Below, piece after piece: positions 34,603 to 64,000 of a stretch of DNA of 64,000 bases. The position numbers and the translations under genes were made by a program. Where the stretch lies: the NCBI GenBank assembly GCA_963713475.1, contig CAVQLY010000005.1:77955-141954 (forward strand), in the 5' to 3' direction. This DNA is from an uncultured Thermoleophilia bacterium. Its GTDB lineage: Bacteria; Actinomycetota; Thermoleophilia; UBA2241. The notes under the pieces were generated by a model. It was not told where the DNA came from. It searched no databases and saw only the letters and a list, made by a program, of their open reading frames with translations. How positions within the stretch are numbered: position 1 is the stretch's first letter; each line of letters begins with the position of its first letter.

Positions 34603-34612
34603 GGCCGCAGAA

Positions 34613-35234: not shown

Positions 35235-35440
35235 TGGAGGCGGCGAGCGGAGTCGAACCGCTGATGGAGGTTTTGCAGTTCCATCCCGCAGTGTTCTGCT
35301 GTCCCAGTGGCTGCCCGTGAGTTGCACAGAACGCCTGCAAATGAGCGGAGGCTGTGCGCTCTCGGCGTCACCCGTCTCGCAGGCGCGAGATTGGGGCGGG
35401 CCAGTCCCGTGGGCAGATCGGTGCGCAGATCGGTGGGCAG
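35235..35440 (-). repeat. tRNA-Cys(GCA) 3' half (35235..35278) + type-1 conserved arm
   Basis: The reverse complement reads CTGCAAAACCTCCATC-AGCGGTTCGACTCCGCT-CGCCGCC-T-CCA, i.e. anticodon loop, T-arm, acceptor 3' strand, discriminator U and CCA. No 5' half is present. Confidence 0.7.
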
Positions 35441-35608
35441 CCCGGCCGATATCTGCGGACTGGGTTCGCCACGGCGGCGGCCCGTGCCGGCGCCGAGGAA
35501 CGCGACATCATGCGGCAGACGGGACGCCGTTCCACGGTCATGGTCAGGCGCTACATACGCGGCGGCAGTCTGTTCCGCAGCAACGCAGCCTCGGTGGTCG
35601 GCCTCTAG
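35441..35608 (+). pseudogene. Tyrosine-recombinase (integrase) C-terminal stump
   Basis: RYLRTGFATAAARAGAEERDIMRQTGRRSTVMVRRYIRGGSLFRSNAASVVGL. This is the box II region with the RRY catalytic-Tyr context. Nothing recognisable lies upstream. Confidence 0.6.
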
Positions 35609-35620
35609 AGAGGCTCGTGA

Positions 35621-35652
35621 AGAGGCCCACCGCCGTCACGGGTAGCGGGCCT
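35621..35652 (-). terminator. Hairpin H, copy 3 (degenerate, 2 mismatches)
   Basis: gaggcccaccgccgtcacgggtagcgggcctc, between the integrase stump end (35608) and the lipoprotein stop (35690). Confidence 0.5.
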
Positions 35653-35689
35653 CGGTGCGAAGAAGGCGGCCGGGACCCGGGCACTCAAC

Positions 35690-36394
35690 CTAAGGCGTGG
35701 GCGAGGCGACCGACACCGGGCGGAACTTGAAGTTGGGGGTCATGAAAAGATACCCCGACTCGCGCGTGGGGTAGACGAATCCCTCGGCCTCCTCGTCGGC
35801 TTCGAAGAAGTCCACCTCCCCCTGCGCGCGGTTGCCTGTCTCGGCCGCCCACACCAGACCCTTGGGGAAGTTGACCTCCGGGTCGAAGGGCGCCATGGCG
35901 TAGGTGACGACGATGTACGTCCTGCCAGCACGCAGGGTGACCGGCGCGACCTTGACGAAACGGTAGCACGCTTCCAGTGGACTGTTCCGCTGGACCATGC
36001 CTCTGACGAGCAGCTTCTTCGTCGCCATATCGTAGATGCCCGTGGGGTGGGCGTGGCGCAGCCCGTTGCCGCCGTCGTCGAAGTAGCCGAGGTGCGTCAC
36101 TTGGATGTCGACCGTGGGCTTGAAGGTCCAGCCGAGCGAAGTCTCACCGATGTCGGTGGTCGCGTCATCAGGGGGAGGGAACGTGGCGGCCGGGATGGGC
36201 TTGGCTCCCGGCGTCCACGTGTGGGTCGGAGTGGGCGTCGGCGTACTGCTGACGGTGGCAGCGACGCTCGGAGACGGTGCCGCAGTCCCGGTTGTTGCGG
36301 TGTCCGAGCCGCCGCAGGCGGCGAGCACCAGAGCTACGGCGGCGAACGCCGCCAGCGCGGCGGCCCAGATGATCTTCCTCAGACGAGATTCCAT
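35690..36394 (-). CDS. Lipoprotein, DUF4082-like beta-sandwich suggested (paralog of 39432..40094)
   Basis: ORF 35690..36412. GGGAGGGA RBS before ATG 36394. Lipobox LVLAACGG, then a Thr/Pro/Ser linker, then GWTFKPTVDIQVTHLGYFDD...RAGRTYIVVTY. Confidence 0.7.
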   Translation of the reverse strand: MESRLRKIIWAAALAAFAAVALVLAACGGSDTATTGTAAPSPSVAATVSSTPTPTPTHTWTPGAKPIPAATFPPPDDATTDIGETSLGWTFKPTVDIQVTHLGYFDDGGNGLRHAHPTGIYDMATKKLLVRGMVQRNSPLEACYRFVKVAPVTLRAGRTYIVVTYAMAPFDPEVNFPKGLVWAAETGNRAQGEVDFFEADEEAEGFVYPTRESGYLFMTPNFKFRPVSVASPTP

Positions 36395-36449
36395 GGCCCC
36401 GATCCCTCCCATCGTGTGACCACGTCGGACGCCGCGTCAGTCCGCCTTC

Positions 36450-36507
36450 GGGAGTCCCGTATGACGAGACTTGTACGCCCGGTTCGTCATGGCGACAAGC
36501 GTTTATC
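36450..36507 (-). promoter_or_regulatory. Type-2 leader/promoter block, copy 1
   Basis: gggagtcccgtatgacgagacttgtacgcccggttcgtcatggcgacaagcgtttatc. In gene orientation it contains TTGTCG-N17-TACAAG. Confidence 0.45.
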
Positions 36508-36557
36508 GCCCCTGCAGGCCGACGGGAGCGTGGCTGCCGATCTCGCGTGGCCGGACG

Positions 36558-36597
36558 TCCTCTGTGCGTGTGGGCCGGTCCACGAACGGCGGCCGGC
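36558..36597 (-). repeat. Box B, copy 2 (divergent, no adjacent H)
   Basis: Plus-strand sequence cctctgtgcgtgtgggccggtccacgaacggcggccggcc. Confidence 0.45.
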
Positions 36598-36741
36598 CAG
36601 TCGCAGGGAGGACGGCCGGTCTGCCGGCAGGGACGGTGCAGCAGGAGGGCATCATTGGGCAAGACGCAGGCAGCCATGCTGCTTCGCAGGAATGCGGGAC
36701 TGCAGCGGGCACCAGAAGGTGGCCAGGCACAGGACAGAAGT

Positions 36742-36934
36742 TGGAGGCGGCGAGCGGAGTCGAACCGCTGATGGAGGTCTTGCAGTCCCATCCCGCAGTG
36801 TTCCGCTGTCTCAGTGGCCGCCCCTGAGTTGCACAGAACGCCTGCAAATGTGCGGAGGCTGTGCGCCCTCGGCGTCACCCGTCTCGCTGACGCGAGGTTG
36901 AGTCAGGCCAGTCCCGTGGGCAGATGCGTGGGCA
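36742..36934 (-). repeat. tRNA-Cys 3' half (36742..36785) + type-1 conserved arm
   Basis: tggaggcggcgagcggagtcgaaccgctgatggaggtcttgcag. The arm aligns to the 33.5 kb and 35.3 kb copies. Confidence 0.7.
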
Positions 36935-36963
36935 ACGCCGCGGGCGACTTGCCGGTCGCGGAT

Positions 36964-36995
36964 GAGGCCCGCTGCCCTCACGGGGGGCGGGCCTC
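36964..36995 (-). terminator. Hairpin H, copy 4
   Basis: gaggcccgctgccctcacggggggcgggcctc, 35 nt past the stop at 37031. Confidence 0.6.
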
Positions 36996-37030
36996 CTGCT
37001 ATCAGATGTCCGGGTGCGTTCGGTACCCGA

Positions 37031-37531
37031 TCACCGTCCCGCGATGAAGATGTCTGCGTAGCCGGTGATGTAGACCGGCCCGGCCTCGTTCAGCGCAGAG
37101 GTGAGGCCTATCGCCTTCGTCTTGTGTCCGACCAGCCACTGGTACTGCGGCGAGGCGGCCGTCACCCGCCCGTTGGCCTGGAACCTGTAGGTGCTCACGA
37201 AGTTGTAGACGCCCACCTGGTAGCCGCTGATCGTCACGGGGGCGACGGCGTCAGCGTCGTACCCGCCGACGTAGATGGTCCAGTCCTCGATGAAGTGCTG
37301 GGTCCTGCCGGTGTACCGGCTGAGTGCGCCGCCGTCCCGCTCGACGTAGGCGATGTCGCCGTTGATGGCGCCCGTGATGGGGCCGAACCAGTCGCCAATG
37401 GGGTTGATGTCAGGAGCGACCGAGAGGTCCGTATGGCACCTGAGCGGCGCGTTGCTCTTGGACTGCGCCGCAGCCGGCCCCGCCAGCGCGAGCACGAGCA
37501 GTGCCAGAGTGATGAACAGTACCTTTCTCAT
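37031..37531 (-). CDS. Secreted beta-rich protein of unknown function (166 aa)
   Basis: ORF 37031..37696. GGGGAGG RBS before ATG 37531. Signal peptide MRKVLFITLALLVLALAGPAAA. Confidence 0.7.
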   Translation of the reverse strand: MRKVLFITLALLVLALAGPAAAQSKSNAPLRCHTDLSVAPDINPIGDWFGPITGAINGDIAYVERDGGALSRYTGRTQHFIEDWTIYVGGYDADAVAPVTISGYQVGVYNFVSTYRFQANGRVTAASPQYQWLVGHKTKAIGLTSALNEAGPVYITGYADIFIAGR

Positions 37532-37596
37532 TGCGCTACCTCCCCAGTGTCGTGACCTGCGATGCATCAGTGTGCGGCGTTCGCGGCGCACTGTCA

Positions 37597-37613
37597 TCAC
37601 CGGAATCCGGTGA
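37597..37613 (-). promoter_or_regulatory. P palindrome, copy 4
   Basis: tcaccggaatccggtga, about 76 nt upstream of ATG 37531. Confidence 0.6.
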
Positions 37614-37650
37614 TTTCTGGGTGCCGGCGAACGTGACAGATGCTGTCGGT

Positions 37651-37690
37651 GCGCTTGGTGCGTGTGGACAAAGTCCCCGAAGCGGTGGCC
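37651..37690 (-). repeat. Box B, copy 3
   Basis: The reverse complement reads ggccaccgcttcggggactttgtccacacgcaccaagcgc. It starts 10 nt after hairpin H copy 5. Confidence 0.6.
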
Positions 37691-37700
37691 GGTCAAAGAA

Positions 37701-37732
37701 GAGGCCCGCTGCCCTCACGGGTGGCGGGCCTC
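37701..37732 (-). terminator. Hairpin H, copy 5
   Basis: gaggcccgctgccctcacgggtggcgggcctc. It follows a roughly 210-bp slot (37733..37945) with no gene. Confidence 0.6.
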
Positions 37733-37945
37733 TGCCAGCTGAACTGAGAGCCGCCCGCCGCAGCTCGGGAGAATGCTGACAAGTCAGCCGTCCAAGACGT
37801 GCCTACCTTGTCGCTTCCCCAGCGCATCACGCCGGTATCCATCCCTAGCGTGTCGCGCTGCGCCATGCCGAGCATCTGCGACGGGCACCTTGATACTGCG
37901 CGCCTTCGGCGGCGGCCACAAGCGTTGGCCCCAGCGTTCAGGCAA

Positions 37946-37979
37946 GAAGGCCCGCTGCCCTCACGGGTGGCGGGCCTCC
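37946..37979 (-). terminator. Hairpin H, copy 6
   Basis: gaaggcccgctgccctcacgggtggcgggcctcc, 17 nt past the GYD stop at 37995. Confidence 0.6.
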
Positions 37980-37994
37980 TGCTGTCGTGCGCCG

Positions 37995-38288
37995 TCAGGG
38001 CAACTGGCTCACAAGGCCGGCGAACTCCTCAGGCGTGAAGGCGCGGAGCGTCTGAGTGGTGACATAGCCCTGAGCGGCCAGCGCCATCGCCGTCACGGCT
38101 GCGACCTCGTCGCTGGGACCTTCTGCCACCGCCACGTAGTCGTAGGCGCCCATCGTGGCTCTGAAGCAGACCATCTTCCCGCCCGCGGCCTCGAGCGCCT
38201 TGATGCCCGCGTCGATCCGCGCCGGCGCGCCCTTGAGGTCGGCAAGTCCCTTCGGGGTCATGTTGAAGAGAAGGACGAACTGCGCCAT
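37995..38288 (-). CDS. GYD-domain protein (97 aa)
   Basis: MAQFVLLFNMTPKGLADLKGAPARIDAGIKALEAAGGKMVCFRATMGAYDYVAVAEGP, with the characteristic G-x-YD core. Confidence 0.8.
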   Translation of the reverse strand: MAQFVLLFNMTPKGLADLKGAPARIDAGIKALEAAGGKMVCFRATMGAYDYVAVAEGPSDEVAAVTAMALAAQGYVTTQTLRAFTPEEFAGLVSQLP

Positions 38289-38376
38289 GGTGCACCTCCT
38301 GTGCCGTGGCGTCGCATCCTCTGTGCGGCGCCGTCACCAACCACCTCTACGGTAGGTGTGGCGAGCGCCGCCGTCT

Positions 38377-38393
38377 TCACCGGAATCCGGTGA
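38377..38393 (-). promoter_or_regulatory. P palindrome, copy 5
   Basis: tcaccggaatccggtga, about 96 nt upstream of ATG 38288. The upstream context gctcgccgtcgcccaagaa is conserved. Confidence 0.6.
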
Positions 38394-38441
38394 TTCTTGG
38401 GCGACGGCGAGCATCGGCGGCGACTTCCCCCGGCCAGCAAA

Positions 38442-38473
38442 GTGGCCCGCTGCCCTCACGGGTGGCGGGCCTC
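38442..38473 (-). terminator. Hairpin H, copy 7
   Basis: gtggcccgctgccctcacgggtggcgggcctc. It is followed in gene orientation by a truncated box B. Confidence 0.6.
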
Positions 38474-38583
38474 TGTGTGAGGCGGGCGGCGGTCACAAGG
38501 CTCCTCGGGCGCATGACGAGTGGCGATCCCGGCGACGCACCGTGCCGGATGCGGAGCCGTCCAGTCAGTAGGTTGTCGGCATG

Positions 38584-39124
38584 TCACGGGGCGGGACTGG
38601 CGGTCGGCAGATCCTTCAGGTGCACGGTCTTGTCGTACACGACTCTGTTTGTGCTCTTCTGGTCGTTGTCGTTGGCCCCGACGCTTCCCGCGAGGCCCTC
38701 CTCCGCAGTCCAGACCAGGCTGTCGGGGTCGTCCGGCGCCTTGGCGATCTGGAAGCCCCACGTGTAGCCCGAGTCCTTGTTGTACATGGTGAATCGAATC
38801 GCTGTCCTTCCACCGGTTCTTCTTCACGTATTCCGTGATGTCGATCCACCCGCTGTCGTCGAGGTAGCCGGCCTTCTTCACAAGGTCCCCGTTGACATAC
38901 GCCTTGCCCACTTCATCGACGTTGTAGATGCGGAGATACCATCCTTCACTCGCCGGAGTGGGGCTGGGCGTCGGGCTGACGGCCACCGCCGCGATGGGCG
39001 AGCTCGAAGGCGAGTCAGACGCAATGGTAGTTGTGCCACCGCAGGCTGCGAGCACCAGAGCCGCAGCGATGAACAGCGCGAGCGTCGCAACCCAGATGGA
39101 CTTCCTCAGGCTTGAGCGTCTCAT
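38584..39124 (-). pseudogene. Lipoprotein (lectin-like beta-sandwich?) with one frameshift near 38790
   Basis: ATG 39124 gives MRRSSLRKSIWVATLALFIAAALVLAACGG...ITEYVKKNRWKD. The sequence then continues in another frame as (AIRFT)MYNKDSGYTWGFQIAKAPDD... to the stop at 38584. Confidence 0.6.
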
Positions 39125-39181
39125 GACTCCGATCCCCCCCCATCGCGCCACCACGTCGGACGCCCGTGCCGGTCCGCTCTC

Positions 39182-39239
39182 GGGAGTCCCGTATGACGAA
39201 ACTTGTACGCCCGGTTCGTCGTGGCGACAAGCGTTTGTC
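39182..39239 (-). promoter_or_regulatory. Type-2 leader/promoter block, copy 2
   Basis: gggagtcccgtatgacgaaacttgtacgcccggttcgtcgtggcgacaagcgtttgtc. Confidence 0.45.
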
Positions 39240-39288
39240 ACCGTCGCCGGACAACGGGTGGGTGGACCGCTTTCGGACCTGACCGGAC

Positions 39289-39332
39289 GCTCTGTGCGTG
39301 GACGGAGGCCCCTAGACGGCAGTCGGTCGGCC
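39289..39332 (-). repeat. Box B, copy 4 (divergent)
   Basis: gctctgtgcgtggacggaggcccctagacggcagtcggtcggcc, starting 9 nt after hairpin H copy 8. Confidence 0.45.
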
Positions 39333-39341
39333 GTCGCAAAA

Positions 39342-39373
39342 GAGGCCCGCTGCCCTCACGGGTGGCGGGCCTC
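39342..39373 (-). terminator. Hairpin H, copy 8
   Basis: gaggcccgctgccctcacgggtggcgggcctc, 59 nt past the stop at 39432. Confidence 0.6.
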
Positions 39374-39431
39374 TGGCGAGACGAACGACCCTGCCCGCCA
39401 TACCTCGGGTCTACGGCGCCCGCGAAGTGAC

Positions 39432-40094
39432 CTAGAGCGGCTTGTACTTGAAGTTGGCGGTGATGAACTCGTTCGGGTTGGTCGGCGGGTAGACGAACTC
39501 GTCGGTCAGCGTCTCGCGGTAGCCTACGTACTCGATCTCGGGCGCGAAAACCAGCCCCGTCGGGCCGTTGACCTCGGGGTCGAAGGGCGGGTATGGAGAC
39601 GGTGGCCACCACGTAGGACGCGCCCGCCGCGAGGGTCACGGGCTGGATCCTCGTGAAGCGGTAGGCCCCGTCCAGCGAGCTCTTCTTCTCGACGGTGGTC
39701 TTCACCAGCAGCTTCTGTGTGGATACATCGAAGATGCCCACTGGATGCGGGTGGCGCAGGCCGTTCCCGCTGTCGTCGAAGTAGCCGAGGTGCGTCACTT
39801 GGATATCGACCGTTGGCTTGAACTCCCAGCCGTTCGTGCTCGACTGGAAGCCCTCTGTAGTGCCCTCCTGAGCAGGGATGGATGCGGCCGGGATGGGCTT
39901 CGCGCCAGGCGCCCAAGTACCGGTCCAGTCGGCGTCGGCGTACTGCTGATGGTGGCAGCGACGCTCGGAGATGGTGCCGCAGTCCCAGTCGTTGCGGTGT
40001 CCGAGCCGCCGCAGGCGGCGAGCACGAGAGCCGCGGCGACGACCAGCGGCCAGCGTGGCAGCCCAGATGGACGTCCTCAAACGAGACGTTTCAT
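39432..40094 (-). pseudogene. DUF4082-like lipoprotein paralog of 35690..36394, with at least 4 frameshifts
   Basis: ATG 40094 hits a stop after 5 codons. Homologous segments (IWAATLAA; LAACGGSDTATTGTAAPSPS; GWEFKPTVDIQVTHLGYFDDSGNGLRH; FDPEVNGPTGLVF...ANFKYKPL*) lie in three different frames. Confidence 0.6.
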
Positions 40095-40150
40095 GGTCCC
40101 GATCCCTCCCATCGTGTGACCACGTCGGACGCCCGCGCCGGTCCGTCGTC

Positions 40151-40207
40151 GGGAGTCCCGTATGACGAAACTTGTACGCCCGGTTCGTCGCGGCGACAAG
40201 CGTTTGT
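40151..40207 (-). promoter_or_regulatory. Type-2 leader/promoter block, copy 3
   Basis: gggagtcccgtatgacgaaacttgtacgcccggttcgtcgcggcgacaagcgtttgtc. Confidence 0.45.
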
Positions 40208-40348
40208 CACGCCGGAGACCGAACGTCCGCGTCGCTCAGGCGCGATGGTCCATTCAGCCCGATTCGAGTAGCTTCGACGGGATGTCGGCATCTAGGCCGT
40301 CAAGAGTGTCGATGCACACAGAGTAGGCATCCATGCGCGGAGAGAAGT

Positions 40349-40540
40349 TGGAGGCGGCGAGCGGAGTCGAACCGCTGATGAAGGTTCTGCAGTCGTCAGG
40401 CGGTCATGCGCGCCGGTAGTCGCCTGGACGCGATTGTGCTGCAAAGTCCAGGTTTCCGGCCGCCCTCCGTGATGCGCGCTGCACGGCTGTGGTGCGCCGT
40501 GCTGAGGCGTCTTATCGGCCGTTCGTCGGCAGGTGAGCCG
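40349..40540 (-). repeat. tRNA-Cys 3' half (40349..40392) + type-2 conserved arm
   Basis: tggaggcggcgagcggagtcgaaccgctgatgaaggttctgcag. The arm (tcgtcaggcgg...gattgtgctgcaaagtccagg...gaggcgtcttatcggc) aligns to 46711..46857. The outside flank gcggagagaagt is shared with the 35.2 kb copy. Confidence 0.65.
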
Positions 40541-48777: not shown

Positions 48778-48778
48778 G

Positions 48779-55533: not shown

Positions 55534-55552
55534 GCACGATACGCAATCGTGC
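55534..55552 (+). promoter_or_regulatory. 7-5-7 palindrome gcacgat-acgca-atcgtgc
   Basis: A second copy at 62380..62398 has arms acacgat/atcgtgt. The outer position changes on both arms (G..C to A..T). Confidence 0.4.
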
Positions 55553-55582
55553 CAGGAACGTAGTCGCACTGACTCCACGCGA

Positions 55583-55622
55583 CCGGGTGCCGTATCGGGG
55601 ACTATGCTCACACGTACAGAAC
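55583..55622 (+). repeat. Box B, copy 5 (divergent, no adjacent H)
   Basis: ccgggtgccgtatcggggactatgctcacacgtacagaac. Confidence 0.45.
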
Positions 55623-55741
55623 GTCCGGTCGGGCGCAATGCTGGGAGACGCCCCGATCAGCCTGCTGGAGTGACAATCGCCCAACGGGCCTATCTCTAGC
55701 CACGCCGGGCACCTCCCGCAGTAGGAGGGAGGTGAGAAGCC

Positions 55742-56296
55742 ATGAGAGGACCGTACCGCAAGTACGGCGTCTTGGCGCTGCTCGCGCTGCTCCTGCTGCT
55801 CGGTTTGCTGCTGGTCGCCGCACCGGCAGGCGCGGAGACCCGGACCGCCTACACGGCGACCACGACCTACCTTCCCGACGACCCCGACAACGCCCCCGGC
55901 AACTGGGTCTTGTACGAGAAGAAGCAGGCCTGCGCTCTGGACATTGTCGAGGTCTTTTGGACCGAGTGCAGCGACCCCCGCCGGACCGGCAGGAACGTCC
56001 AGCATCTGAACAGCTACGGGCAAGGACACTTCTGGGGGCAGGGCGTCTTCAATCCCTTCTGGGCGATTCAGTACCTGACGGGAACGCTCTACGTCGACTA
56101 CGGGGGAGGCGGCGTCTGGGAAGGCAGCTCGACCGCGACCTACGACCGCAAGACCGGGACGACCCAGACTGGCGTGGACTACGGCGTGTCCGGCAGCGTC
56201 GCCGGATTGCGTGCGACCTACACCGTCAGAGAGACTGCTCAAGGCAACACCTTTGTAACCACCGTCACCGAGACCGGGTACATCATCGAGCCGTGA
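55742..56296 (+). CDS. Secreted protein of unknown function (184 aa)
   Basis: RBS ggagggagg. Signal peptide GVLALLALLLLLGLLLVAAPAGA. Intact ORF. Confidence 0.7.
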   Translation: MRGPYRKYGVLALLALLLLLGLLLVAAPAGAETRTAYTATTTYLPDDPDNAPGNWVLYEKKQACALDIVEVFWTECSDPRRTGRNVQHLNSYGQGHFWGQGVFNPFWAIQYLTGTLYVDYGGGGVWEGSSTATYDRKTGTTQTGVDYGVSGSVAGLRATYTVRETAQGNTFVTTVTETGYIIEP

Positions 56297-56325
56297 CCTC
56301 TGCGGCTGCAGCGGGAGGAACAAGG

Positions 56326-56357
56326 GAGGCTCGCCACCCGTGAGGGCAGCGGGCCTC
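56326..56357 (+). terminator. Hairpin H, copy 9
   Basis: gaggctcgccacccgtgagggcagcgggcctc, 30 nt past the stop at 56296. Confidence 0.6.
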
Positions 56358-56367
56358 TTCAGCGCTC

Positions 56368-56406
56368 GGCCACCGTTTCGGGGACTTCGCCCACACGCAC
56401 AGAAGC
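56368..56406 (+). repeat. Box B, copy 6
   Basis: ggccaccgtttcggggacttcgcccacacgcacagaagc, starting 10 nt after hairpin H copy 9. Confidence 0.6.
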
Positions 56407-56660
56407 GCGACTGGAGGAGGGGCAAGAACCGCGGCGGCCGCCCTGGGAGGCGGCCGGGGGGCGCCAGGCAATGGAGCTGCCGGCGCGGTGGTCTGGTTCT
56501 GACGGTTCCTGAAATCAACCATAGCACCGGGACCGGAACGGTGCGCCGTTGCATGGCGGCCCGCCGGCAGTCTTCCGCTGGAAGTCGGCTACGACGGGCG
56601 CGTCGTCATTCTCGGCCGCGCTCGCGGCACGGGACAAGGGGCTGAGGGGTCCGGCAGGTT

Positions 56661-56773
56661 GACGACGAAGAACGGCCCCGGCGCCGTCCTGCGACCCGGG
56701 GCCGTCTGCCTCCGGCGGAGCGGGGACAGAACAAGGGGACCTACGCCCCTCCTAGCGCGTTCCGCCGACTGCA
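56661..56773 (+). repeat. Element E, copy 1 (about 110 nt, two predicted hairpins)
   Basis: ggccccg-N15-cggggcc, then ggcggagcggggacagaacaaggggacctacgcccctcctagcgcgttccgccgactgc. Confidence 0.5.
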
Positions 56774-57007
56774 CCCACGTTGTCGGTGCGTTCCGGCATC
56801 CCTTTAGCCTCGAGAGTAGTCAGTCCGGTAGACGCGACGCCAGCGCCAGATGCGGGACCGGGCGCCGAAGCCGCCTGGCATCGCCTGACGCAGGACGACC
56901 CCGCCGCGAAACGTCCAACTAGGCGCTAGACGAGTCAAACGTCAGCGTGCAGGGTCGTGAGGGTAGCCTAGACGATGCTGGAGCCACCGACCAGGGTCGT
57001 TGCCGAT

Positions 57008-57114
57008 GGACGCAGAAGCGGCCCCGAAGCCGAAGCCCGGGGCCGCCCGTCACCGGCGAAGCGGGGCAGAACGAGGGGACCTGTGCCCCCTCCTAGCGCC
57101 TTCCGCCGGCTGCG
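57008..57114 (+). repeat. Element E, copy 2
   Basis: ggccccg-N10-cggggcc, then ggcgaagcggggcagaacgaggggacctgtgccccctcctagcgccttccgccggctgc. Confidence 0.5.
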
Positions 57115-57377
57115 CCTCTGTTCTCAGCCATGGGCCATCCCCTTGGCGAGCCTGGCTTGGGGGGATCAGGATGTTGTTAGCAAAACGGAGAGGCAGCCCT
57201 TCGTCAAGCGCGGGCCCGCGCGTGGGGGCCGCCTACGGGTCTAACCGGCACCGGTGGATTGTGGCCCTGCCGACGACCGCTCCGACAGCCGATGCTCTGC
57301 GTATCATCAGCAGTCAAACGTTTCGCACTAGGGATGCAGAACGGTCCGCCGCCAGTGAGCTGCCTGGGTGACGATGA

Positions 57378-57409
57378 GAGGCTCGCCGCCCGTGAGGGCA
57401 GCGGGCCTC
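57378..57409 (+). terminator. Hairpin H, copy 10
   Basis: gaggctcgccgcccgtgagggcagcgggcctc, closing a gene-less stretch of about 1 kb. Confidence 0.6.
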
Positions 57410-57418
57410 TCCATGACC

Positions 57419-57458
57419 GGCCACCGTTCTAGGGACCTCGCCCACACGCACAGAACGC
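57419..57458 (+). repeat. Box B, copy 7
   Basis: ggccaccgttctagggacctcgcccacacgcacagaacgc, starting 9 nt after hairpin H copy 10. Confidence 0.6.
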
Positions 57459-57493
57459 GACCTCCCTCTGCCACGCTCGCCGTCGCCCAAGAA

Positions 57494-57510
57494 TCACCGG
57501 ATTCCGGTGA
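57494..57510 (+). promoter_or_regulatory. P palindrome, copy 6
   Basis: Context gccacgctcgccgtcgcccaagaa-tcaccggattccggtga-tgacaacgcc, about 106 nt upstream of ATG 57609. Confidence 0.6.
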
Positions 57511-57608
57511 TGACAACGCCACTCACCACTCCCATTGTGGAGGTGGGAAGGAGGCGAGAGATAGCAGGGACAGTGCATCGTGAAGGTTGAATCGAAGAGA
57601 AGCTGGTC

Positions 57609-57883
57609 ATGGTCTTCATCACGTTGTGCAGAGTGAGGTCCAGGCATCTCGAAGGGGCACACCGCCCGCCGCCTCGACTACGGTATCCCGAGGGGATGCG
57701 GGTGTTGGGCGAGTGGTGGCTGCAGACTCCGGACCCTGAGGTGATTCTGATTACAGAAGCGAACAGCGCGGCCCCGATGCTGGCTGCGCGTGCGGCTTGG
57801 GATGATGTCTTCGACATCACGATACTCCCGGCCGTCAGGCCGAAGAAGGGATGGCGATCGCCCGTCAGGCGATGGCGGGGTAG
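57609..57883 (+). pseudogene. DUF3303-like small protein with one frameshift near 57840
   Basis: MVFITLCRVRSRHLEGA...YPEGMRVLGEWWLQTPDPEVILITEANSAAPMLAARAAWDDVFDITILP. The natural-looking end EEGMAIARQAMAG* is in another frame (TAG 57881). Confidence 0.55.
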
Positions 57884-57916
57884 CGGACGGGTCTGCAGCC
57901 GCGGGCGATGCAGCAA

Positions 57917-57948
57917 GAGGCCCGCGACCCGTGAGGGCAGCGGGCCTC
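57917..57948 (+). terminator. Hairpin H, copy 11
   Basis: gaggcccgcgacccgtgagggcagcgggcctc, 34 nt past TAG 57881. Confidence 0.6.
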
Positions 57949-57980
57949 TGTTAATGCCGAAATGTCTAGCCTATGGCGAA

Positions 57981-58122
57981 GGCTCAGACGGCCCCCGTCC
58001 TTGCCAAGAATCGTGCCAACATGCCAATCCGAACGATGGGGATTGTGGCAGTGTATGGGGCTGTGTGGAGGCTGGAGGAGCACCGCAGGCACGGTCAGGG
58101 TTGATGAAAATCGTGTCGCGGC
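57981..58122 (+). repeat. Leader block R4, copy a (about 140 bp)
   Basis: ggctcag..ccttgccaagaatcgtgcc..gattgtggcagtgtatggggctgtgtggaggctggaggagcaccgcaggcacggtcaggg..atcgtgtcgcggc. Aligns to 61979..62118. Confidence 0.6.
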
Positions 58123-58223
58123 CTGTGAACGGCTGCCAGAAGGGGTCCGAAGCCAAGACTGGGAGGGGGCAGCGCATCGGGCACACCGTTTCTTCAGCCA
58201 GAACGAAGCGCGGGGGGTCTGAA

Positions 58224-61200
58224 ATGGTACGCAAGGGCCTGTTCATGGTCGTCTTCGCGACTGCCACGTTGTGGTTATTGTGGCCGTCATCTCGCCGACG
58301 GCGATGGCTGCGGCGGGGTGGGTGACGACGCAGCTCACCGACAACGACTACAGCAACAGAGTTCCCGGAGTCTCGGGTGACCGGGTGGTGTGGATGGCGG
58401 GGGAGTTACAGGCGGGGGTCAAGACAGTAATACCTGGAGGTCTACACGTGGAAGGAGGGCGACTCTGGCCCCACTCAGATCACCCACAACCTCACCCGGA
58501 TTACGCCGCAGGTCTCCGGCGATCGCGTCGTCTGGGTCGGATCCATGGCTCCTACAACGCGACGGCGCCTCTACACGTGGGAATCGGGCGACGCCGCGCA
58601 ACACTGATCGTCGACGGCCTGGGGCAGACCCCGAGTACGCAATCTCAGGCGATCGGGTGGCGTGGGTAGACATTCCGGACTATCCGGGAGGTTACAGCGC
58701 CGCGGAGGTCTACACTGGAAGGTGGCGGCTGCGCCACGCGGGTCACCGACAACGCCGTTCCGGATGGCTACGTGCAGGTTTCCGGCGACGGCTGGTGTGG
58801 GCCGCAGGGGACATGCCTGGACCAGGGAGCCCAAAGGCGCCGGGGAGATGAAGACCTGGAAGGTGGACGAAGCTGCACGCGGGTGACGACAATGACCATG
58901 ACGACTGGTGCACGATGGTCTCCGGCGATCGGCTGGCGTGGCTCGGGAGCGCGGATGCCTCCTCGATCGAAGACGTCTTCACTGGAAGGTGGGCGACGCA
59001 GCGCCACACGGGTCACTCGGGCCGTGAGTGCGAGCGATCTCCGGGTCTCCGGCGACGTTCGCCTGGCGGGCGCTATAGGGGGGCCGATAGATGACAACGA
59101 GGTCTTCACTTGGCAGGTCGGCGACCGGCCCGACAAGGTTGACCGACGACGACGGTAACGACGGATTCGTGGGGCTCTCCGGCAATCGACTAGTGTGGGC
59201 CTCGTGGCCGCATGGTAGTTCTGAGCCTTGCGAGATCTACACATGGGGGCCGGTGACGTCGTACCGACCAGCTCACCGGCATCAGCAGGACTGGGCGCGA
59301 CGGTTTCGGGAGAACGGGTTGTCTGGAGCTACCTGTACAGTCACAAGCCAGATTCGTACTGCCGTACCGCTCCCGGCGGCGTGGGCAATTTGGTCTCCCC
59401 GACGCACCTGACGAGGCGACTGGTACGCGGACTCTGGCCCCGCTTCGCTTGGGATGCAGCAGCGATGCAATCTCCGGTGTAGACGGCTACTCGTACATGC
59501 TCGACAGGACCGGGGACCGTGCAGACACGGAGGTAGATCCCACGGACGCGGCAGTGCTCGGCTTCGCACCGTGGACCGACTACCAACCGGTCGATATGCG
59601 ACCGTCGCCACAGGCGACGTCAACAACGACGGCAAGGCGGACATCGTGACGGCGAACGGCGGCGACTCCACCGTCAGCGTACTGCTCGGAAGGGATGACG
59701 GCAGTTTCCAAGCGAAGGACGATACGAACTGGAGTTGCGCGTGCAGTAGCGTTGGCGAGTTCAACGGCGACGGCAAGCAGGACGTGGCGACGAGGAACAC
59801 CGATGGGCACGGTCTCGGGTCGGTAGCGTGCTGCTGGGCAACGGCGACGGCACTTCAGGGCAAGGTCGACTATCCGACGGGTGGCAGCGGAACCGACGTG
59901 GCCGTGGGCGACTTCAACGGCGACGGCAAGCAGGATCTGGCCGCGACGTCGTCGCAACGCGAACAAGGTCGGTGTGAGGCTGGGCTACGGCGACGGCAGC
60001 TTCAGGGCCAGGGCCGACTGGTCGGCACAGTGAGAGTCACGTTGGTCGTAGGTGATTTCAACGGCGACGGCAAGCATGCCCTGGTGGTGGCGAACGGCCA
60101 GGAGCATTGGACGCGAGCGTGCTGCTCGGTGACGGGGGCTGGCAGCTTCGCCGGCAAGATCGACTTCACGACGGGTGACGGCCCTACCGAGTCGCCGTGG
60201 GTGACTTCAACGGCGACGGCAAGCAGGACCTGGTGACGGCGAACGTTTCGATTCGGTGGCGACAAGGTCGGCGTGCTGCTTGGGGAAGGCGACGGCAGCT
60301 TCGCCGGACCTATCGACTATGCGACCGGCTAGCTCGCTCGGTCGGTCGCCGTGGGTGACTTCAACGGCGACGGCAAGCAGGACCTGGTGACGGCAACGTC
60401 GACGGCGGCGACGTCAGCGTGCTCGGGGATGCGGCGACGGCACCTTCGCCGGGGCAGCGGCCTTCAGCGTGGGGTCTGGGGCGTCCTCGCTCGCCGTCGG
60501 CGACTTCAACTCGGACGGCCGGCCTGACCTAGCTGCGGCCACAATGCATTGCTCTACGGCGACACGGTCAGCGTCCTCATGAACGCCGCCGCGGGCACGG
60601 CCACCATTTCAGTGACTTTGCCGATGGTGTCTGGTACTTCCACGTGAGGGCTGTGAACCGAGCGGGCTACGGTGGCCCGACCAGCACGCGAGAGGTACGC
60701 ATCGACACGGCGCACAATACGTTGCCGGGCAGCAACGTGACGGTCGACCTTGAGTCGGACATCTGCGTGATGTTCGACAGCGTCAGCGCGCCCGGCACGA
60801 CGACGGTCACGACGAGCCCCGTCAGTCCCGGTCCCGCCCCCGGCGAGTTGCTGGTGCTTGGCGGCCTCTACTTCGCGTTCTCGACCACGGCTGCATACCA
60901 GGGGCCCATCAGCATCTGCCTGCCCTATGATATTACCGGTCTCAGCGATGCCGAGCAGCAGGGCCTCGTCCTCCTACATTACGACGACGGTGTCTGGGTC
61001 AATGTGACGGACTCCGTGGACATGGTGAGACACATGGTCTGCGGCTCGGTCCAGCATCTCTTGGTTCGCGGTCGCCTATCCCAACCAGCCGCCCGCGGTT
61101 GGCGCCCTCAGCGCCCCGGTCGACCCCGTCAAGGTGGACACGCCCGTCGTGGCCTCGGCCGGCTTCACCGACCCCGGCATCCTCGACACCCACACGGCGC

Positions 61201-61828
61201 TCTGGGCCTGGGGGGACGAGACGTCACCCGGCAGCGTCACGGAGGTCAACGGCTGCGGCACGGTCTCGGGGACGCACACCTACCTCAAACCGGGCGTCTA
61301 CACCGTGACGCTGACTGTGACCGACGATGACGGCGCCTCGAGCCAGCGCGTCTACGGGTACGTCGTGATCTACGACCCGAGCGCCGGGTTCGTCACCGGC
61401 GGCGGGTGGATCCTGTCGCCTGCCGGGGCGTACGTGCCCGACCCGGGCGCTGACCGGGACGGCCAGCTTCGGCTTCGTCACCAAGTACCTGAAGGGTGCC
61501 ACGGTGCCGACCGGCGAGACCGAGTTCGTGTTCCAGGCCGCGGGCACATGAACTTCCAGTCGACCAGCTACCAGTGGCTGGTTGTCTCCGGAAAGGACAA
61601 GGCCCAGTACAAGGGCAGCGGCACGATCAATGGTTCGGCGGCAACTACGGCTTCATGCTGACCGCGCTCGACGGACAGGTCTCTGGCGGCGGCAATCTCG
61701 ACAAGCTGCGCATCAAGATCTGGGACAAGACCAGCGGTGAGGTCATCTACGACAACAAGCCTGGTGCCGCGGACACTGCCGACCCGACCACGACCCTCGG
61801 CGGCGGCAGCATCGTCGTCCACAATTAG
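58224..61828 (+). pseudogene. Giant exported surface protein (SGDRVVW-type repeats, 7 FG-GAP/VCBS-like repeats, PKD-like domain), broken by at least 10 frame changes and an in-frame TAG
   Basis: ATG 58224 gives signal peptide MVRKGLFMVVFATATL. Motifs VSGDRVVW, ISGDRVAW and TVSGERVVW occur at 58.3-59.4 kb. VGDFNGDGKQDLV occurs 7 times at 59.6-60.5 kb. YFHVRAVNRAGYGG and THTYLKPGVYTVTLTVTDDDGAS follow. The end GGGSIVVHN* is at 61828. The pieces lie in 12 or more ORF-track fragments. A TAG occurs at about 60330. Confidence 0.65.
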
Positions 61829-61978
61829 GAGTACGGACAATCCTGAGCCTGAGGCACGGAGGCGGCCGGCCCCTCCGTGCCTCTTCGCCCTGGCTCTGCT
61901 ACCCGCGAGCAGCTTGTTGCTGCCGACCTTGGCCTGCTGCGTGTTGGCGGCGACCCTGTCCGAGCTGTTGGGGATATC

Positions 61979-62118
61979 GGCTCAGCCCCCTTCCTTGCCA
62001 AGAATCTTGCCGACATGCCCATACGAGACAGTGGAGATTGTGGCACTGTATGGGACTGTGTGGAGGCTGGAGGAGCACCGCAGGCACGGTCAGGGTCGAC
62101 TGAAGATCGTGTCGCAGC
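61979..62118 (+). repeat. Leader block R4, copy b
   Basis: cggctcag..ccttgccaagaatcttgcc..gattgtggcactgtatgggactgtgtggaggctggaggagcaccgcaggcacggtcaggg..atcgtgtcgcagc. Confidence 0.6.
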
Positions 62119-62379
62119 GATTTGGACCCGACACAGGTCTGAAAATCGTGTCGCCGCCCGGTCGGCACAGGTCACGCGAACCTGTGTGGCAAACGAAAGG
62201 CGCTCCTGTGCTGCTGGTCTTCACCCTCTGCCGACGTCGAGGCGACTCACTGGGGACCTAGTAGCGCCCGCGCAGCTCTTCACGAGGTGGAGCGCCATGC
62301 GCCCCGGTCCCCTGGCGGCCCCCGAAGAAGACGGCGTGCGCTTGGCAGAAGCCGCCTCTAGCCTCTGCTCGCGGTCTGC

Positions 62380-62398
62380 ACACGATACACAATCGTGT
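62380..62398 (+). promoter_or_regulatory. 7-5-7 palindrome acacgat-acaca-atcgtgt
   Basis: Second copy of the 55534..55552 palindrome, 25 nt upstream of P copy 7. Confidence 0.4.
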
Positions 62399-62422
62399 CC
62401 GCGCCCCGACGTCCCCTGAGAA

Positions 62423-62439
62423 TCACCGGATTCCGGTGA
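62423..62439 (+). promoter_or_regulatory. P palindrome, copy 7
   Basis: gagaa-tcaccggattccggtga-agacaacccc, about 150 nt upstream of ATG 62582 and about 320 nt upstream of ATG 62753. Confidence 0.55.
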
Positions 62440-62581
62440 AGACAACCCCGTTCTGCGCCTCCATGATGACGATGGGAGGCATTGATCCGCCGGACGCACC
62501 ACCGCGGCCACCAGACACCGGGGGGGAGCCGCTGGTGAGGCCGGACCTCTGGGAGCCAAGGGGCCAACCACGGGAGGGAGC

Positions 62582-62700
62582 CATGAAGGAGCTTCTGCTC
62601 CTCATCGGACGAGCACGACTGCCGACGCGCTGTCCAACCAGCTGGACTCGGGCTCGCTCCTCTGCCCGGCCCGCTGGTGGATTCCTCGGGGGTCCCGCAG
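62582..62700 (+). pseudogene. Possible remnant of a paralog of the 63825 gene
   Basis: Strong RBS gggaggg before MKELLLLIG. In a second frame STTADALSNQLDSGS resembles ATTTADQIAQLQKAV of the 63825 product. Very short and degenerate. Confidence 0.3.
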
Positions 62701-62752
62701 GTTCAAGTCGGCGGTGCGCTGAAGCGCCGCCTGAGATGGAGGTGTATGCCCG

Positions 62753-63274
62753 ATGAAAGCCAAGAAACCGATCCTTCTTGTCGTGCTCCTTGCGTTCGTG
62801 CTCGTGCTGGCGTTCGCGCCGGCGGCCTCGCGAAATCGCAGCCCGTCGCCGCATCGGGCTCATGGACCTGGGTGGGCGGCGAGGGCGGGACGAACAGAGT
62901 GCTCGTCCAGCGGACACCTGTTCATCAAGGGCTACGAGATCGGCCAGTGGTCCGGCACGTTCACGGCCACCAACACGTACGAGAACTACGTGGGGACGGT
63001 CTGGTTCGACCCCGCCAACCCCGATACTTGGTACTCCCTGCGGGCGAAGCTCTGGATCCACTTCGCGGATGCCACCGTCGACATGGGCGGCGGTGTGCTC
63101 CTTCATGGTGACATGACCATGCTCGTCGTCTTTGATGGCTACGACTGGGTCCAGGGAGCCACCTGGAAGATCCACAACGGGACGCGTGGCCTGAAGCATC
63201 TCGGAGGCGCGGGCACCCTTGTCGGGACTACGACGGGGATGGACTACGCCGGCACCATCTGGACTCAGAAATAG
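62753..63274 (+). pseudogene. Secreted protein of unknown function, probably 2 compensating frameshifts near the N-terminus
   Basis: GGAGG RBS. Signal peptide MKAKKPILLVVLLAFVLVLAFAPAA. Codons 27-55 are Arg/Ser/Pro-rich, while the alternative frame reads AKSQPVAASGSWTWVGGEGGTNRVLV. The remainder (GHLFIKGYEIGQWSGTF...GTIWTQK) is clean. Confidence 0.55.
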
Positions 63275-63345
63275 CGACGGCGGCCAGGAGCGCGAATCGA
63301 AGAACGGAGGTCCTTCGGGGTCTCCGCTATCCTGCGCCCCGCCAA

Positions 63346-63377
63346 GAGGCCCGCCACCCGTGAGGGCAGCGGGCCTC
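63346..63377 (+). terminator. Hairpin H, copy 12
   Basis: gaggcccgccacccgtgagggcagcgggcctc, 72 nt past the stop at 63274. Confidence 0.6.
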
Positions 63378-63425
63378 TTCTGCGGGCTGTAGAAGTCGCC
63401 GCTGACGCTCGCTGTCGCACAAGAA

Positions 63426-63442
63426 TCACCGGATTCCGGTGA
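63426..63442 (+). promoter_or_regulatory. P palindrome, copy 8
   Basis: gctcgctgtcgcacaagaa-tcaccggattccggtga-agacaacgcc, about 390 nt upstream of ATG 63825. Confidence 0.55.
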
Positions 63443-63824
63443 AGACAACGCCGTGCCGTGTCTCCAAGATGGGAGTCGGGAGGCGTTGATCCGCCGGCGG
63501 CGCCATGCGGCCACCACGGTATGGCAGGGAGCCACTGGCGAGTTCGCCCGCGGGCCGGTCGTCGTGATGTGTGGGGAGCGGCCGGCAGCAAGAAGGGTCC
63601 AGGGCCGACTCCAGGAGGGGGCAGCGAATGGGGCACACCGTCTTGTCCACGTGATGCACGCTCGCCTGCGTTCCGTCCCTAGCCCCTGCACCCGCAAGCG
63701 CCACGCGCGGCGATGATGAGGGACGAACGGGCAGTGCAGCGTCCCTAGGGAGCCAAACACCGGGTCCCGGGTCTGGGGACCGGTTCAGTGATAGGGAATG
63801 CGCCAATCCAAGGAGGGGAACGTC

Positions 63825-64000
63825 ATGAGAAGGCTCGTTCTGTACCTCGTCTGCGTCGCCCTTGCGTTCTTGCTCGTGACGCCGGCGGTGGCCAGCGCCA
63901 CGACCACGGCCGACCAGATCGCTCAGCTCCAGAAAGCTGTCGCGGCCCTGCAGATGCTGACCGCCCAGCAGGGCCTACAGATCCAGGTGCTGAAGGCACA
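63825..64000 (+). CDS. Secreted protein, 5' part only (runs off the window)
   Basis: RBS aaggagggg. ATG 63825 gives MRRLVLYLVCVALAFLLVTPAVASATTTADQIAQLQKAVAALQMLTAQQGLQIQVLKA. Not in the ORF track because no stop is reached. Confidence 0.6.
   Translation, partial: MRRLVLYLVCVALAFLLVTPAVASATTTADQIAQLQKAVAALQMLTAQQGLQIQVLKA

Follow-up and report, generated by a model that had tools for sequence, protein, structure and literature searches.

The DNA analysed here, referred to as the window, is a stretch of 64,000 nt from an uncultured Thermoleophilia bacterium (GenBank assembly GCA_963713475.1, contig CAVQLY010000005.1, positions 77,955 to 141,954 of the forward strand). From position 55,534 to its end it carries an array of plus-strand genes, the intergenic regions of which are built from a few recurring blocks named H, B and P, and the same blocks are found in a counterpart array on the minus strand. 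We consider it rather probable, judging from the sequence comparisons described below, that these blocks are standardised transcription signals of a lineage-specific set of secreted and surface-protein genes, with P as a promoter and H as a terminator. The genes and blocks of the plus array, and the counterpart array as a whole, are as follows.

33483..40532, minus strand: the counterpart array, with eight H copies, P at 34503, 37590 and 38370, copies of B, a riboswitch aptamer at 35089-35178 and four copies of a repeat named D2.
55585..55621, plus strand: a weak copy of B (8 mismatches in 37), neither preceded by H nor followed by P.
55742..56296, plus strand: an intact gene; its 184-aa product has a signal-peptide-like N-terminus and matches no Pfam family above cut-off.
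56326..56357, plus strand: H, 29 nt past the stop codon of the 184-aa gene.
56368..56404, plus strand: B, beginning 10 nt after H.
56405..57377, plus strand: a gene-free slot of about 1 kb without coding-phase signal.
57378..57409, plus strand: H, opening a long-form H-B-P junction in which H and P are 86 nt apart.
57419..57455, plus strand: B, within the same H-B-P junction.
57468..57538, plus strand: P module; its palindrome (57494-57510) lies downstream of the stretch CCACGCTCGCCGTCGCCCAAGAA, and a 17-nt spacer separates a -35-like ATGACA from a -10-like CATTGT (57533-57538), after which comes a short leader that contains GGAAGGAGG.
57609..57883, plus strand: DUF3303 gene, frameshifted in the window.
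57917..57948, plus strand: H, 33 nt past the DUF3303 stop codon; a repeat named R4 comes next.
58224..61828, plus strand: gene for an FG-GAP/VCBS-type surface protein, with many frameshifts and many short open reading frames (ORFs) in the window.
61851..61883, plus strand: a terminator-like hairpin unlike H (-34.3 kcal/mol, z -3.6) that belongs to the FG-GAP gene itself and ends in GAGGC...GCCTCTTC as H does.
62418..62467, plus strand: P, with a palindrome at 62423-62439, a -35-like AAGACA and a -10-like CATGAT at 62462-62467.
62753..63274, plus strand: gene for a 173-aa secreted protein.
63346..63377, plus strand: H with the exact consensus, 71 nt past the stop codon, opening a short-form H-P junction in which H and P are 50 nt apart.
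63400..63470, plus strand: P, with a palindrome at 63426-63442, a -35-like AAGACA and a -10-like CAAGAT at 63465-63470.
63825..64000, plus strand: start of a gene for a secreted protein, cut by the window end.

The H block is a 32-nt sequence, GAGGCCCGCCACCCGTGAGGGCAGCGGGCCTC, of which the window holds 11 copies at up to three mismatches, against 0 in 100 shuffles, and a twelfth with four mismatches at 35622. Four copies lie on the plus strand (56326, 57378, 57917 and 63346) and eight on the minus strand between 33.7 and 39.4 kb. For 10 of the 12, a stop codon is found 16-135 nt upstream, H being in the sense orientation every time, and in most of the metagenome copies inspected a same-strand gene also terminates shortly upstream. 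The consensus folds at -29 kcal/mol (z -4.8) into a hairpin whose loop, GUGA, is of the GNRA type and whose tail, CUCUUC, is short. A stable GC-rich hairpin in sense orientation downstream of a stop codon is what is expected of an intrinsic terminator, and the terminators that belong to a riboswitch and to the FG-GAP gene in the same DNA have a similar stem and equally weak tails (CTCTTC or CGCGCTTCT). The exact 32-mer was found in different species-level metagenome-assembled genomes (MAGs), and the exact 28-nt core on more than 120 metagenome stretches among the matches listed. H is absent from the approximately 30 kb of ordinary genes at 1-33 kb of the window; it is not the general terminator of this genome. 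The predicted role of H is most likely that of a terminator and insulator of the kind known as TRIT in mycobacteria, as discussed below.

The surroundings of H in the metagenome copies are also patterned. H is often preceded by a second hairpin and ...CACACAGA; at many of the loci L028-L147 (e.g. L095, L036 and L081) the conserved second hairpin is GCGGCCCGGACGCCCGGTGGCCGGGTCCGGGCCGC, accompanied by TCGCCTCACACAGA upstream. Two sequence families recur downstream, one named E (GAGACAGGAGAAAGCCGGTGAGACCTGTGCC) and the other F (...GCCATCGTAGCCACGGACTGA), and neither of them is present in the window.

The P block, GAATCACCGGATTCCGGTGAWGAC, has eight copies in the window against 0 expected: three in the plus array (57491, 62420 and 63423), three in the minus array (34503, 37590 and 38370) and two outside the arrays. 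Of the latter two, the one at 20456-20479 on the minus strand precedes a gene for a 228-aa secreted protein and has a degenerate aptamer-like leader, and the one at 30952-30975 on the plus strand precedes a gene for an 819-aa M28 peptidase. The core of P is a perfect 17-bp palindrome, TCACCGGA-T-TCCGGTGA, which adjoins a -35-like (A/T)GACA; a 17-nt spacer and a -10-like YAnnnT come next. Scanning species-representative genomes for AATCACCGGATTCCGGTGA gave 25 loci, 20 of which belong to 8 uncultured Thermoleophilia MAGs. The 40 sites of the window and these 8 MAGs were aligned, and their consensus reads ccacgctcaccgtcgcccaaGAA, then TCACCGGATTCCGGTGA, (a/t)GACA, 17 nt and YAnnnT, with GAA-palindrome-(a/t)GACA invariant. 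About 7 nt past the -10-like hexamer comes either the core of a riboswitch aptamer, GGGAGGCG, or, at sites without riboswitch, GGAAGGAGGTGA and a start codon. Because the Rfam aptamer begins 27-29 nt past the palindrome at 11 sites (27-28 nt in the plus array), the P1 pairs that really form start about 7 nt after the -10-like hexamer, at the expected transcript start.

P often stands alone: 25 of the 38 testable sites have no H within 260 nt, and among the matches listed only 3 of 113 metagenome copies of H are followed by P. Since each mostly occurs without the other, P and H are independent elements rather than one mobile unit. The genes behind P belong to many unrelated families (GYD, DUF3303, M28 peptidase, Cys-x-Cys-His proteins and many without a family), and nearly all of them encode signal-peptide-like N-termini. 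We concluded that P is a predicted promoter signature of a regulon, and we infer that its palindrome, centred at about -43 and touching the -35 element, is the operator of a putative dimeric regulator.

Several P sites run directly into riboswitch aptamers of the cyclic di-GMP-II (c-di-GMP-II) clan (CL00127), mostly matching the GAG variant, which is defined by altered nucleotides of the binding site. The window holds three such aptamers.

35089-35178, minus strand: c-di-GMP-II-GAG aptamer (Rfam RF03169), 60.6 bits.
62466..62555, plus strand: c-di-GMP-II-GAG aptamer, 40.8 bits against a gathering score of 40.
63470..63557, plus strand: aptamer of the same clan, 33.6 bits with the GCG-variant model against 47.9, and 80% identical to the aptamer at 35089-35178.

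Fifteen more c-di-GMP-II-GAG matches at the gathering score were obtained from the 18 MAG loci searched. After the aptamer at 35089-35178 a terminator hairpin is visible that overlaps the 3' strand of P1, and nothing comparable is clear at 62555; the former aptamer is thus predicted to be followed by an expression platform of the terminator type. Riboswitches of the c-di-GMP-II class occur upstream of surface-anchor protein genes (PMC9481103), and the position of the present aptamers in the 5' leaders of surface and secreted protein genes is typical in this respect (PMC9481103). They differ from that precedent in being fused, at a fixed distance of 27-29 nt, to a single conserved promoter-operator module. 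No paper establishing the ligand of the GAG variant was found in the literature searched. Between the aptamer at 62466-62555 and the 173-aa gene there is a short ORF, MKELLLLIG..., with a strong ribosome-binding site (62584-62752, plus strand), which may encode a leader peptide or a small protein.

The spacing between H and P takes few values. Six junctions from four genomes have 49-50 nt and a seventh has 59 nt; in four others the distance is 86-93 nt, and three of these contain the core of B. The short form is simply the H module (H and about 20 nt) adjoining the P module (about 26 nt and the palindrome). The B block itself has three copies in the window at up to three mismatches, against 0 expected, weaker copies at 55585 and 37654 and a core at 36561; it is a conserved, C-rich stretch between H and several different leader types, and may be considered as a Rho back-up site. 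Past B the sequence alternates between the P module, a CGTCCGG-type leader that stands before genes for DUF4082 lipoproteins, and a third type. We read these junctions as compact head-to-tail packing of standard units; an exchange of blocks would also be compatible with their fixed form. A further conserved leader family, the third, was noticed before the DUF4082 lipoprotein genes at 36432-36564, 39164-39296 and 40133-40265 (minus strand), characterised by the inverted repeat GGTGACAAACGCTTGTCGCC, and a gene-less remnant of it lies in the slot at 37750-37945.

Two further shared blocks of the plus array, R4 (57981 and 61979) and one that we call G, had been pointed out in the initial annotation, and both exist. 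G, GGGGGCAGCGCATCGGGCACACCGT, is found at 58165..58189 on the plus strand, within about 58 nt that resemble 63592-63647, and by sequence match at 63617..63641 on the same strand; it was not found in the MAG loci L003-L027 and has no significant fold. As RNAs, B, R4, G and also H together with B fold no better than shuffles, and Rfam gave for H, B, R4 and the gene-free slot nothing beyond weak terminator-like matches below threshold. The idea that R4, G or H with B are structured RNAs was therefore rejected, their folds being at shuffle level and without an Rfam family.

To compare the two arrays, 55.3-64 kb was aligned by blastn with the reverse complement of 33.3-40.6 kb. Forty-two matches were obtained, 41 of them co-oriented and all of them intergenic. 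Among them, H-B-P units (139-142 nt, 80-81% identity) and an H-P unit (103 nt, 89%) are the longest, and two riboswitch aptamers match at 80%. At the DNA level no gene of one array resembles a gene of the other by blastn, and tblastx matches fall almost only in the common non-coding modules. The gene families also differ: the minus array has GYD proteins, DUF4082 lipoproteins and small secreted proteins, and the plus array a DUF3303 protein, an FG-GAP protein and a collagen-like protein. The claim of the initial annotation that H, B and P recur in both arrays, with a polarity tied to the genes instead of the chromosome strand, is thus borne out, with 41 of the 42 matches co-oriented and no block copies expected by chance or obtained in shuffles, and the similarity extends well past the hairpin. 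They had been described as exact reverse complements, which is true only of some H copies; whole modules are 74-90% identical, and block copies overall 74-100%. Nor do the arrays face each other as had been stated: the genes point apart, minus-strand on the left and plus-strand on the right. The mirrored look would follow from the H, P and riboswitch signals being strand-specific and the arrays being transcribed in opposite, diverging directions.

The blocks are not confined to the two arrays. They are spread over an uncultured lineage of soils and sediments, since the modules recur in 8 species-level Thermoleophilia MAGs, P being present at 40 sites in these and the window, and since H was found, among the matches listed, on more than 120 contigs from metagenomes. 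Locus L020 also has a typical P site (2943-2959) and a hairpin like H (4254-4285); it lies on a contig binned as Bacteroidales (MFD00032.bin.2.42), which is probably a mis-binned Thermoleophilia contig.

The genes of the plus array were compared with a metagenome contig (ENA ERZ25039545 contig_57151, hereafter L001) that matches the window at 96% identity between 45.8 kb and the window end and has the same cassette order over 18 kb. The 184-aa protein, which is intact in the window as had been listed, is identical on L001, and a homologue in locus L010 sits behind a P promoter. The DUF3303 gene had been listed as a reading frame of 57609..57883 and is out of frame here, the ATG at 57609 reading on to 58325; on L001 it is intact with 91 aa. 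The giant surface-protein gene at 58224..61828, within which a set of repeats (D5) lies, has no open frame in the window and is represented on L001 by an FG-GAP ORF of 1094 aa. The N-terminal part of the 173-aa protein gene is locally out of register relative to L001, and homologues of this protein stand behind P promoters at three other loci (L003, L012 and L022). The last gene encodes 477 aa on L001, with a weak collagen-repeat match.

The 1-kb slot at 56405-57377 had been described as having no gene; none is called on L001 either, and its sequence is nonetheless partly conserved in other species (L027 and L007), as is the neighbouring 56420-56530 in L027. It contains two internal copies of about 140 nt (approximately 56650-56790 and 57010-57150), each with a hairpin and a T-rich tail on the minus strand, which may be small RNAs or remnants.

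Relative to L001, the window has 87 deletions and 23 insertions, mostly of a single base, 57 of the 110 lying beside the same base. They cluster at 47000-50500, 57000-57500 and 58500-61700, with 53 of them between 58.5 and 60.5 kb. In addition, 554 nt of the window (58009-58562, comprising the R4 end, the G block and the gene start) are absent from L001. The relatives found belong to the Microflora Danica (MFD) series of MAGs, which were reportedly assembled from long nanopore reads. Since the indels are clustered, single-base, deletion-biased, beside the same base and absent from a 96%-identical contig, the frameshifts are more likely to be long-read assembly errors than decay. The earlier picture of some 15 kb of decayed island DNA between the arrays is accordingly doubtful: the frameshifts are absent from L001, which has mostly intact genes there, including those for an amidase, a GntR protein and an M20 peptidase. 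L001 also continues beyond the window, where the initial annotation had proposed to look for an integrase or the intact tRNA-Cys. It carries the rest of the 477-aa collagen-like gene and a third R4 copy, at which the plus array ends about 1.5 kb past the window, then genes on the opposite strand, and there is neither a tRNA nor a called integrase gene in the next 2.5 kb.

Two observations made along the way concern other parts of the material. Six tandem units of 120-123 nt lie in a long ORF at 6180-6963 (plus strand) of the window, which encodes a repeat-domain protein unrelated to the arrays. In MFD02979.bin.2.115, Rfam matches to PYLIS_2, the pyrrolysine insertion sequence of mtbB, were obtained at L016 3039-3138 (minus strand, 72.5 bits) and L013 7910-8000 (plus strand, 50.6 bits), which hints at pyrrolysine-containing methylamine methyltransferases in this Thermoleophilia lineage.

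Besides H, B and P, the arrays contain repeats and short sequences that resemble integration sites. These are as follows.

33483-33696, 35225-35438, 36732-36945, 40339-40532 and 46657-46850, minus strand: five copies of the D2 repeat, 190-214 nt, from repeat alignment.
35354-35608, plus strand: C-terminal fragment of a tyrosine recombinase (...LRTGFATAAARAGAEERDIMRQTGRRSTVMVRRYIRGGSLF...), 13 bits in Pfam and 83-89% identical to the fragments at L021 and L079.
55535..55551, plus strand: a 5+7+5 palindrome, CACGA-TACGCAA-TCGTG, at the left edge of the plus array, sharing ATCGTG with the core at the R4 end.
57981..58118, plus strand: R4 copy a, non-coding, with a core-like end ATGAAAATCGTG at 58104-58115.
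61979..62152, plus strand: R4 copy b; its core, CTGAAGATCGTG, lies at 62100-62111 and has a second copy at 62139-62150.
62381..62397, plus strand: a second 5+7+5 palindrome, CACGA-TACACAA-TCGTG.

R4 is a real repeat, its two window copies corresponding to 57981-58122 and 61979-62113. In the metagenome copies its conserved stretch (CTTGCCAAC...) begins 48-51 nt past the end of the H core used for searching. At least 7 of the 22 unique copies of R4 continue, by way of CTGAA(A/G)ATCGTG, into a variable loop, after which come the T arm GTCAG-TTCAATT-CTGAC and CCTCGCC-A-CCA. This continuation represents the 3' half of a tRNA-Phe-like gene whose anticodon loop contains the crossover, so that the tRNA core expected of an attachment site is present in other contigs; both window copies are without the tRNA remainder. 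Judged by this anatomy, R4 looks like an attachment-site arm of an integrative element and not like the leader block as which it had been introduced, being non-coding and running into a tRNA half elsewhere. We also considered R4 as a small gene or transposase relic, and rejected this: a 28-codon frame occurs in five copies, but 11 of 22 have stops in it, and there is no codon periodicity and no Pfam match. The R4 copies of the plus array bracket three blocks, namely the genes up to DUF3303, the FG-GAP gene, and the 173-aa and collagen-like genes.

D2 has a tRNA-like core in four of its five copies, with an anticodon-loop-like CTGCAAG, a T arm AGCGG-TTCGACT-CCGCT and CGCCGCC-T-CCA, which is tRNA-Cys-like; ARAGORN finds no whole tRNA in it. 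D2 is probably an attachment-site repeat from successive integrations. No intact tRNA-Cys or any other tRNA was found in the window, L001 or 21 loci bearing R4 or D2, and a tRNA search in 41 related loci gave only unrelated tRNAs near some arrays; in two MAGs the array begins directly after tRNA-Ser and tRNA-Arg genes. Fragments of the tyrosine-recombinase C-terminus occur in such regions, at L021 (38.8 and 24.6 bits), at several metagenome loci and in the window, where the fragment is flanked by an H hairpin and a D2 repeat and is convergent with an array gene. No intact integrase, REP-associated (repetitive extragenic palindrome-associated) transposase or other transposase gene was seen in the window, of which the Pfam-scanned ORFs cover a part. 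The stem of the 5+7+5 palindromes equals the anticodon stem implied by the tRNA-Phe remainder at R4, and these palindromes may be recombinase core-like sites or operators. Taken by their anatomy, R4 and D2 look like attachment-site arms left by repeated integration.

In the explanation that we favour, each gene of the arrays would be a separate transcription unit. P would drive the unit, its palindrome binding the putative dimeric regulator at about -43, and the transcript would open straight into a c-di-GMP-II-GAG-type aptamer, presumably ligand-responsive, or into a short leader with a strong ribosome-binding site. H would close the unit and shield the next promoter from read-through. The units would be packed head-to-tail, with the H module adjoining the P module at about 50 nt (short form) or, with B in between, about 88 nt (long form). 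That polarity follows the genes is what such a system predicts, because terminator, promoter and riboswitch are strand-specific transcription signals. The arrays would lie in flexible DNA with R4 (tRNA-Phe-like core), D2 (tRNA-Cys-like 3' part) and integrase fragments, and their clustering is probably the result of repeated integration of small elements.

A number of observations weigh against this explanation. H is conserved in sequence and not in structure alone, and it keeps two C-A mismatches, neither of which a plain terminator needs; its variants, in a set biased by the manner in which the copies were collected, are chiefly single changes that break a pair, with few compensatory ones. 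Only 1-5 T are present in the first 9 nt after the H stem, short of a U-rich tract (at least 5 T in 8), and a consensus scanner calls no H copy a terminator. The -10-like hexamer of P agrees with TATAAT at about 3 of 6 positions only, and a consensus promoter scan calls none of the P sites, because this hexamer is weak and too far from TATAAT. An alternative -10, AAGAAT, overlaps the start of the palindrome, which would then fall within the transcript. No regulator gene adjoining the P sites of the window was found, the only candidate being an unrelated GntR/UTRA protein in the central region. One aptamer of the plus array (62466-62555) is barely over threshold and the other (63470) under it, and the explanation gives B no role. 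Finally, H stands at fixed distances from a few downstream modules in the metagenome copies (B at +27, E at +31, R4 and F at about +49), which hints at block-wise copying or site-specific joining.

The last point leads to an unlikely but serious alternative, in which the modules are recombination or mobility sites and self-contained cassettes are joined or swapped at H/B/P boundaries. The route might be a site-specific recombinase, or homologous recombination with the modules as portable homology arms, and H might be a REP-like element copied by an enzyme. This would account for the fixed spacing between H and each of several different downstream modules, for H being kept, mismatches included, far beyond what a terminator needs, and for the switch of partner exactly at the B end (downstream of the GYD gene B leads to P in the window, and the same H-B leads to another sequence in L079). 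Related cassettes have different neighbours across species, such as a 197-aa gene beside a SnoaL-like gene in L007, and attachment-site-like repeats and tyrosine-recombinase fragments lie within the arrays. However, H always stands in sense behind a gene and P always has its -35 and -10 at fixed spacing and a leader, for which expression signals are the simpler account; P and H are mostly apart; no RYYYAAC or GTTRRRY core lies within 60 nt of any H; no intact integrase or transposase gene was seen among the scanned ORFs; and the cassette order shared with L001 over 18 kb indicates that turnover is not fast. A more far-reaching version, which we think rather improbable, is that the modules and the tRNA-derived R4 and D2 form a cassette-accretion system, by which self-expressing cassettes are captured and shuffled at defined sites in Thermoleophilia. 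It is with equal reserve that we mention its corollary, that H is bound by a dedicated protein rather than being a plain terminator, the system being integron-like in function and different in build. Candidate breakpoints may be the module edges, CTGAARATCGTG and the CACGA-N7-TCGTG sites. We keep this version alive because three features are otherwise unexplained, namely how strictly the sequence of H is kept, what B does and why the junctions are fixed.

That H, B or P are small RNA genes or antisense RNA structures, the P palindrome with its TTCTTGGGCG tail acting as an antisense terminator and H functioning in antisense, is quite improbable. A terminator scan does flag the P palindrome on the opposite strand (63442-63426), H is stabler as antisense RNA (-34 against -29 kcal/mol, fully paired, with the two C-A mismatches becoming G-U pairs), and the gene-free slots hold conserved sequence. 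Against these stand the Rfam searches, which gave only weak terminator-like matches below threshold for H, B, R4 and the slot, the shuffle-level folds of B, R4 and G, and the single orientation that H keeps with respect to the gene upstream, such that its GUGA loop is in the sense transcript. The GACA and the -10 spacing at the palindrome would also be left unaccounted for. An inverted segmental duplication of the 33-40 kb array, to which the same H-B-P order in mirrored orientation might point, is scarcely credible and is refuted by the blastn and tblastx comparison of the arrays: there is no coding similarity at the DNA level, tblastx matches lie almost only in non-coding modules, the gene families differ per array, and the same modules are scattered over many contigs of other genomes.

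To place the transcription-signal explanation among known systems, we compared each block with its nearest counterparts. TRIT is a terminator hairpin of conserved sequence that is restricted to Mycobacterium, with 147 copies in M. tuberculosis, and its discoverers suspected that an extra factor recognises the motif (PMC3152330, Gardner et al. 2011). Like TRIT, H is a lineage-restricted gene-end hairpin with many copies in a high-GC actinobacterial lineage, conserved in sequence and structure and poor in its U-tract. TRIT differs in lying at about -8 relative to the stop codon and in being mostly bidirectional, whereas H lies 16-135 nt past the stop in a fixed orientation, and the sequences are unlike; moreover, all 12 copies of H in the window are in the arrays. 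By analogy, TRIT would nevertheless be the best precedent for H. P resembles class II activator promoters (CRP/FNR-type) in that its palindrome lies about 43 bp upstream of the inferred start, adjoins the -35 and stands before many functionally related genes; it differs in that TCACCGGATTCCGGTGA fits no site known to us or reported in the literature searched, in which H had no match either. The outer TCAC...GTGA of P resembles what we take to be the half-sites of the BldD box, at a spacing of 9 nt rather than 5.

Integron arrays likewise consist of small, unrelated, co-oriented genes separated by a recurrent imperfect palindrome, but here most genes have their own promoter module, there are no attC cores, and the hairpin also occurs at dispersed single genes. 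IntI was not found among the ORFs scanned, a scan that was not exhaustive. An integron cassette array was rejected on account of the missing attC core sites near H and the promoter modules of most genes. With integrative elements that target tRNA genes, or their cis-mobilisable derivatives, the locus shares direct repeats (R4 and D2), tRNA-derived ends, integrase fragments and a last R4 at the array end; it differs in having no intact tRNA or integrase in the window or L001 and no tRNA remainder at the window R4 copies. REP elements and bacterial interspersed mosaic elements are, like H, abundant extragenic hairpins, and a second hairpin just upstream of H is present in many metagenome copies; H differs in having no 5' GTAG, the sequence before it being ...CACAGA, and in its single orientation relative to genes. 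No gene for a REP-associated tyrosine transposase was seen, no genome-wide search for one having been made, and no terminal inverted repeats or target-site duplications at H-B-P were evident on reading the aligned flanks, for which no search was run.

The blocks are therefore most likely ordinary in kind, consisting of a lineage-specific promoter-operator, a known riboswitch family and a TRIT-like terminator in integrative-island DNA, and what is new about the finding lies in its details, as the literature searched contains none of the motifs. For genome scanning it means that intergenic repeats arranged in mirrored arrays can amount to ordinary transcription punctuation, and that, where genes in MAGs assembled from long reads seem decayed, a comparison with sister contigs is called for. 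The hunt for the regulator and tests of the riboswitch can draw on the 40 predicted promoter sites and the more than 15 aptamers. If the explanation is true, it would provide a ready-made promoter-operator motif for a bacterial class known almost only from metagenomes, a lineage-specific terminator for Thermoleophilia and, linked to a variant c-di-GMP-II riboswitch, a defined regulon of genes for secreted and surface proteins.

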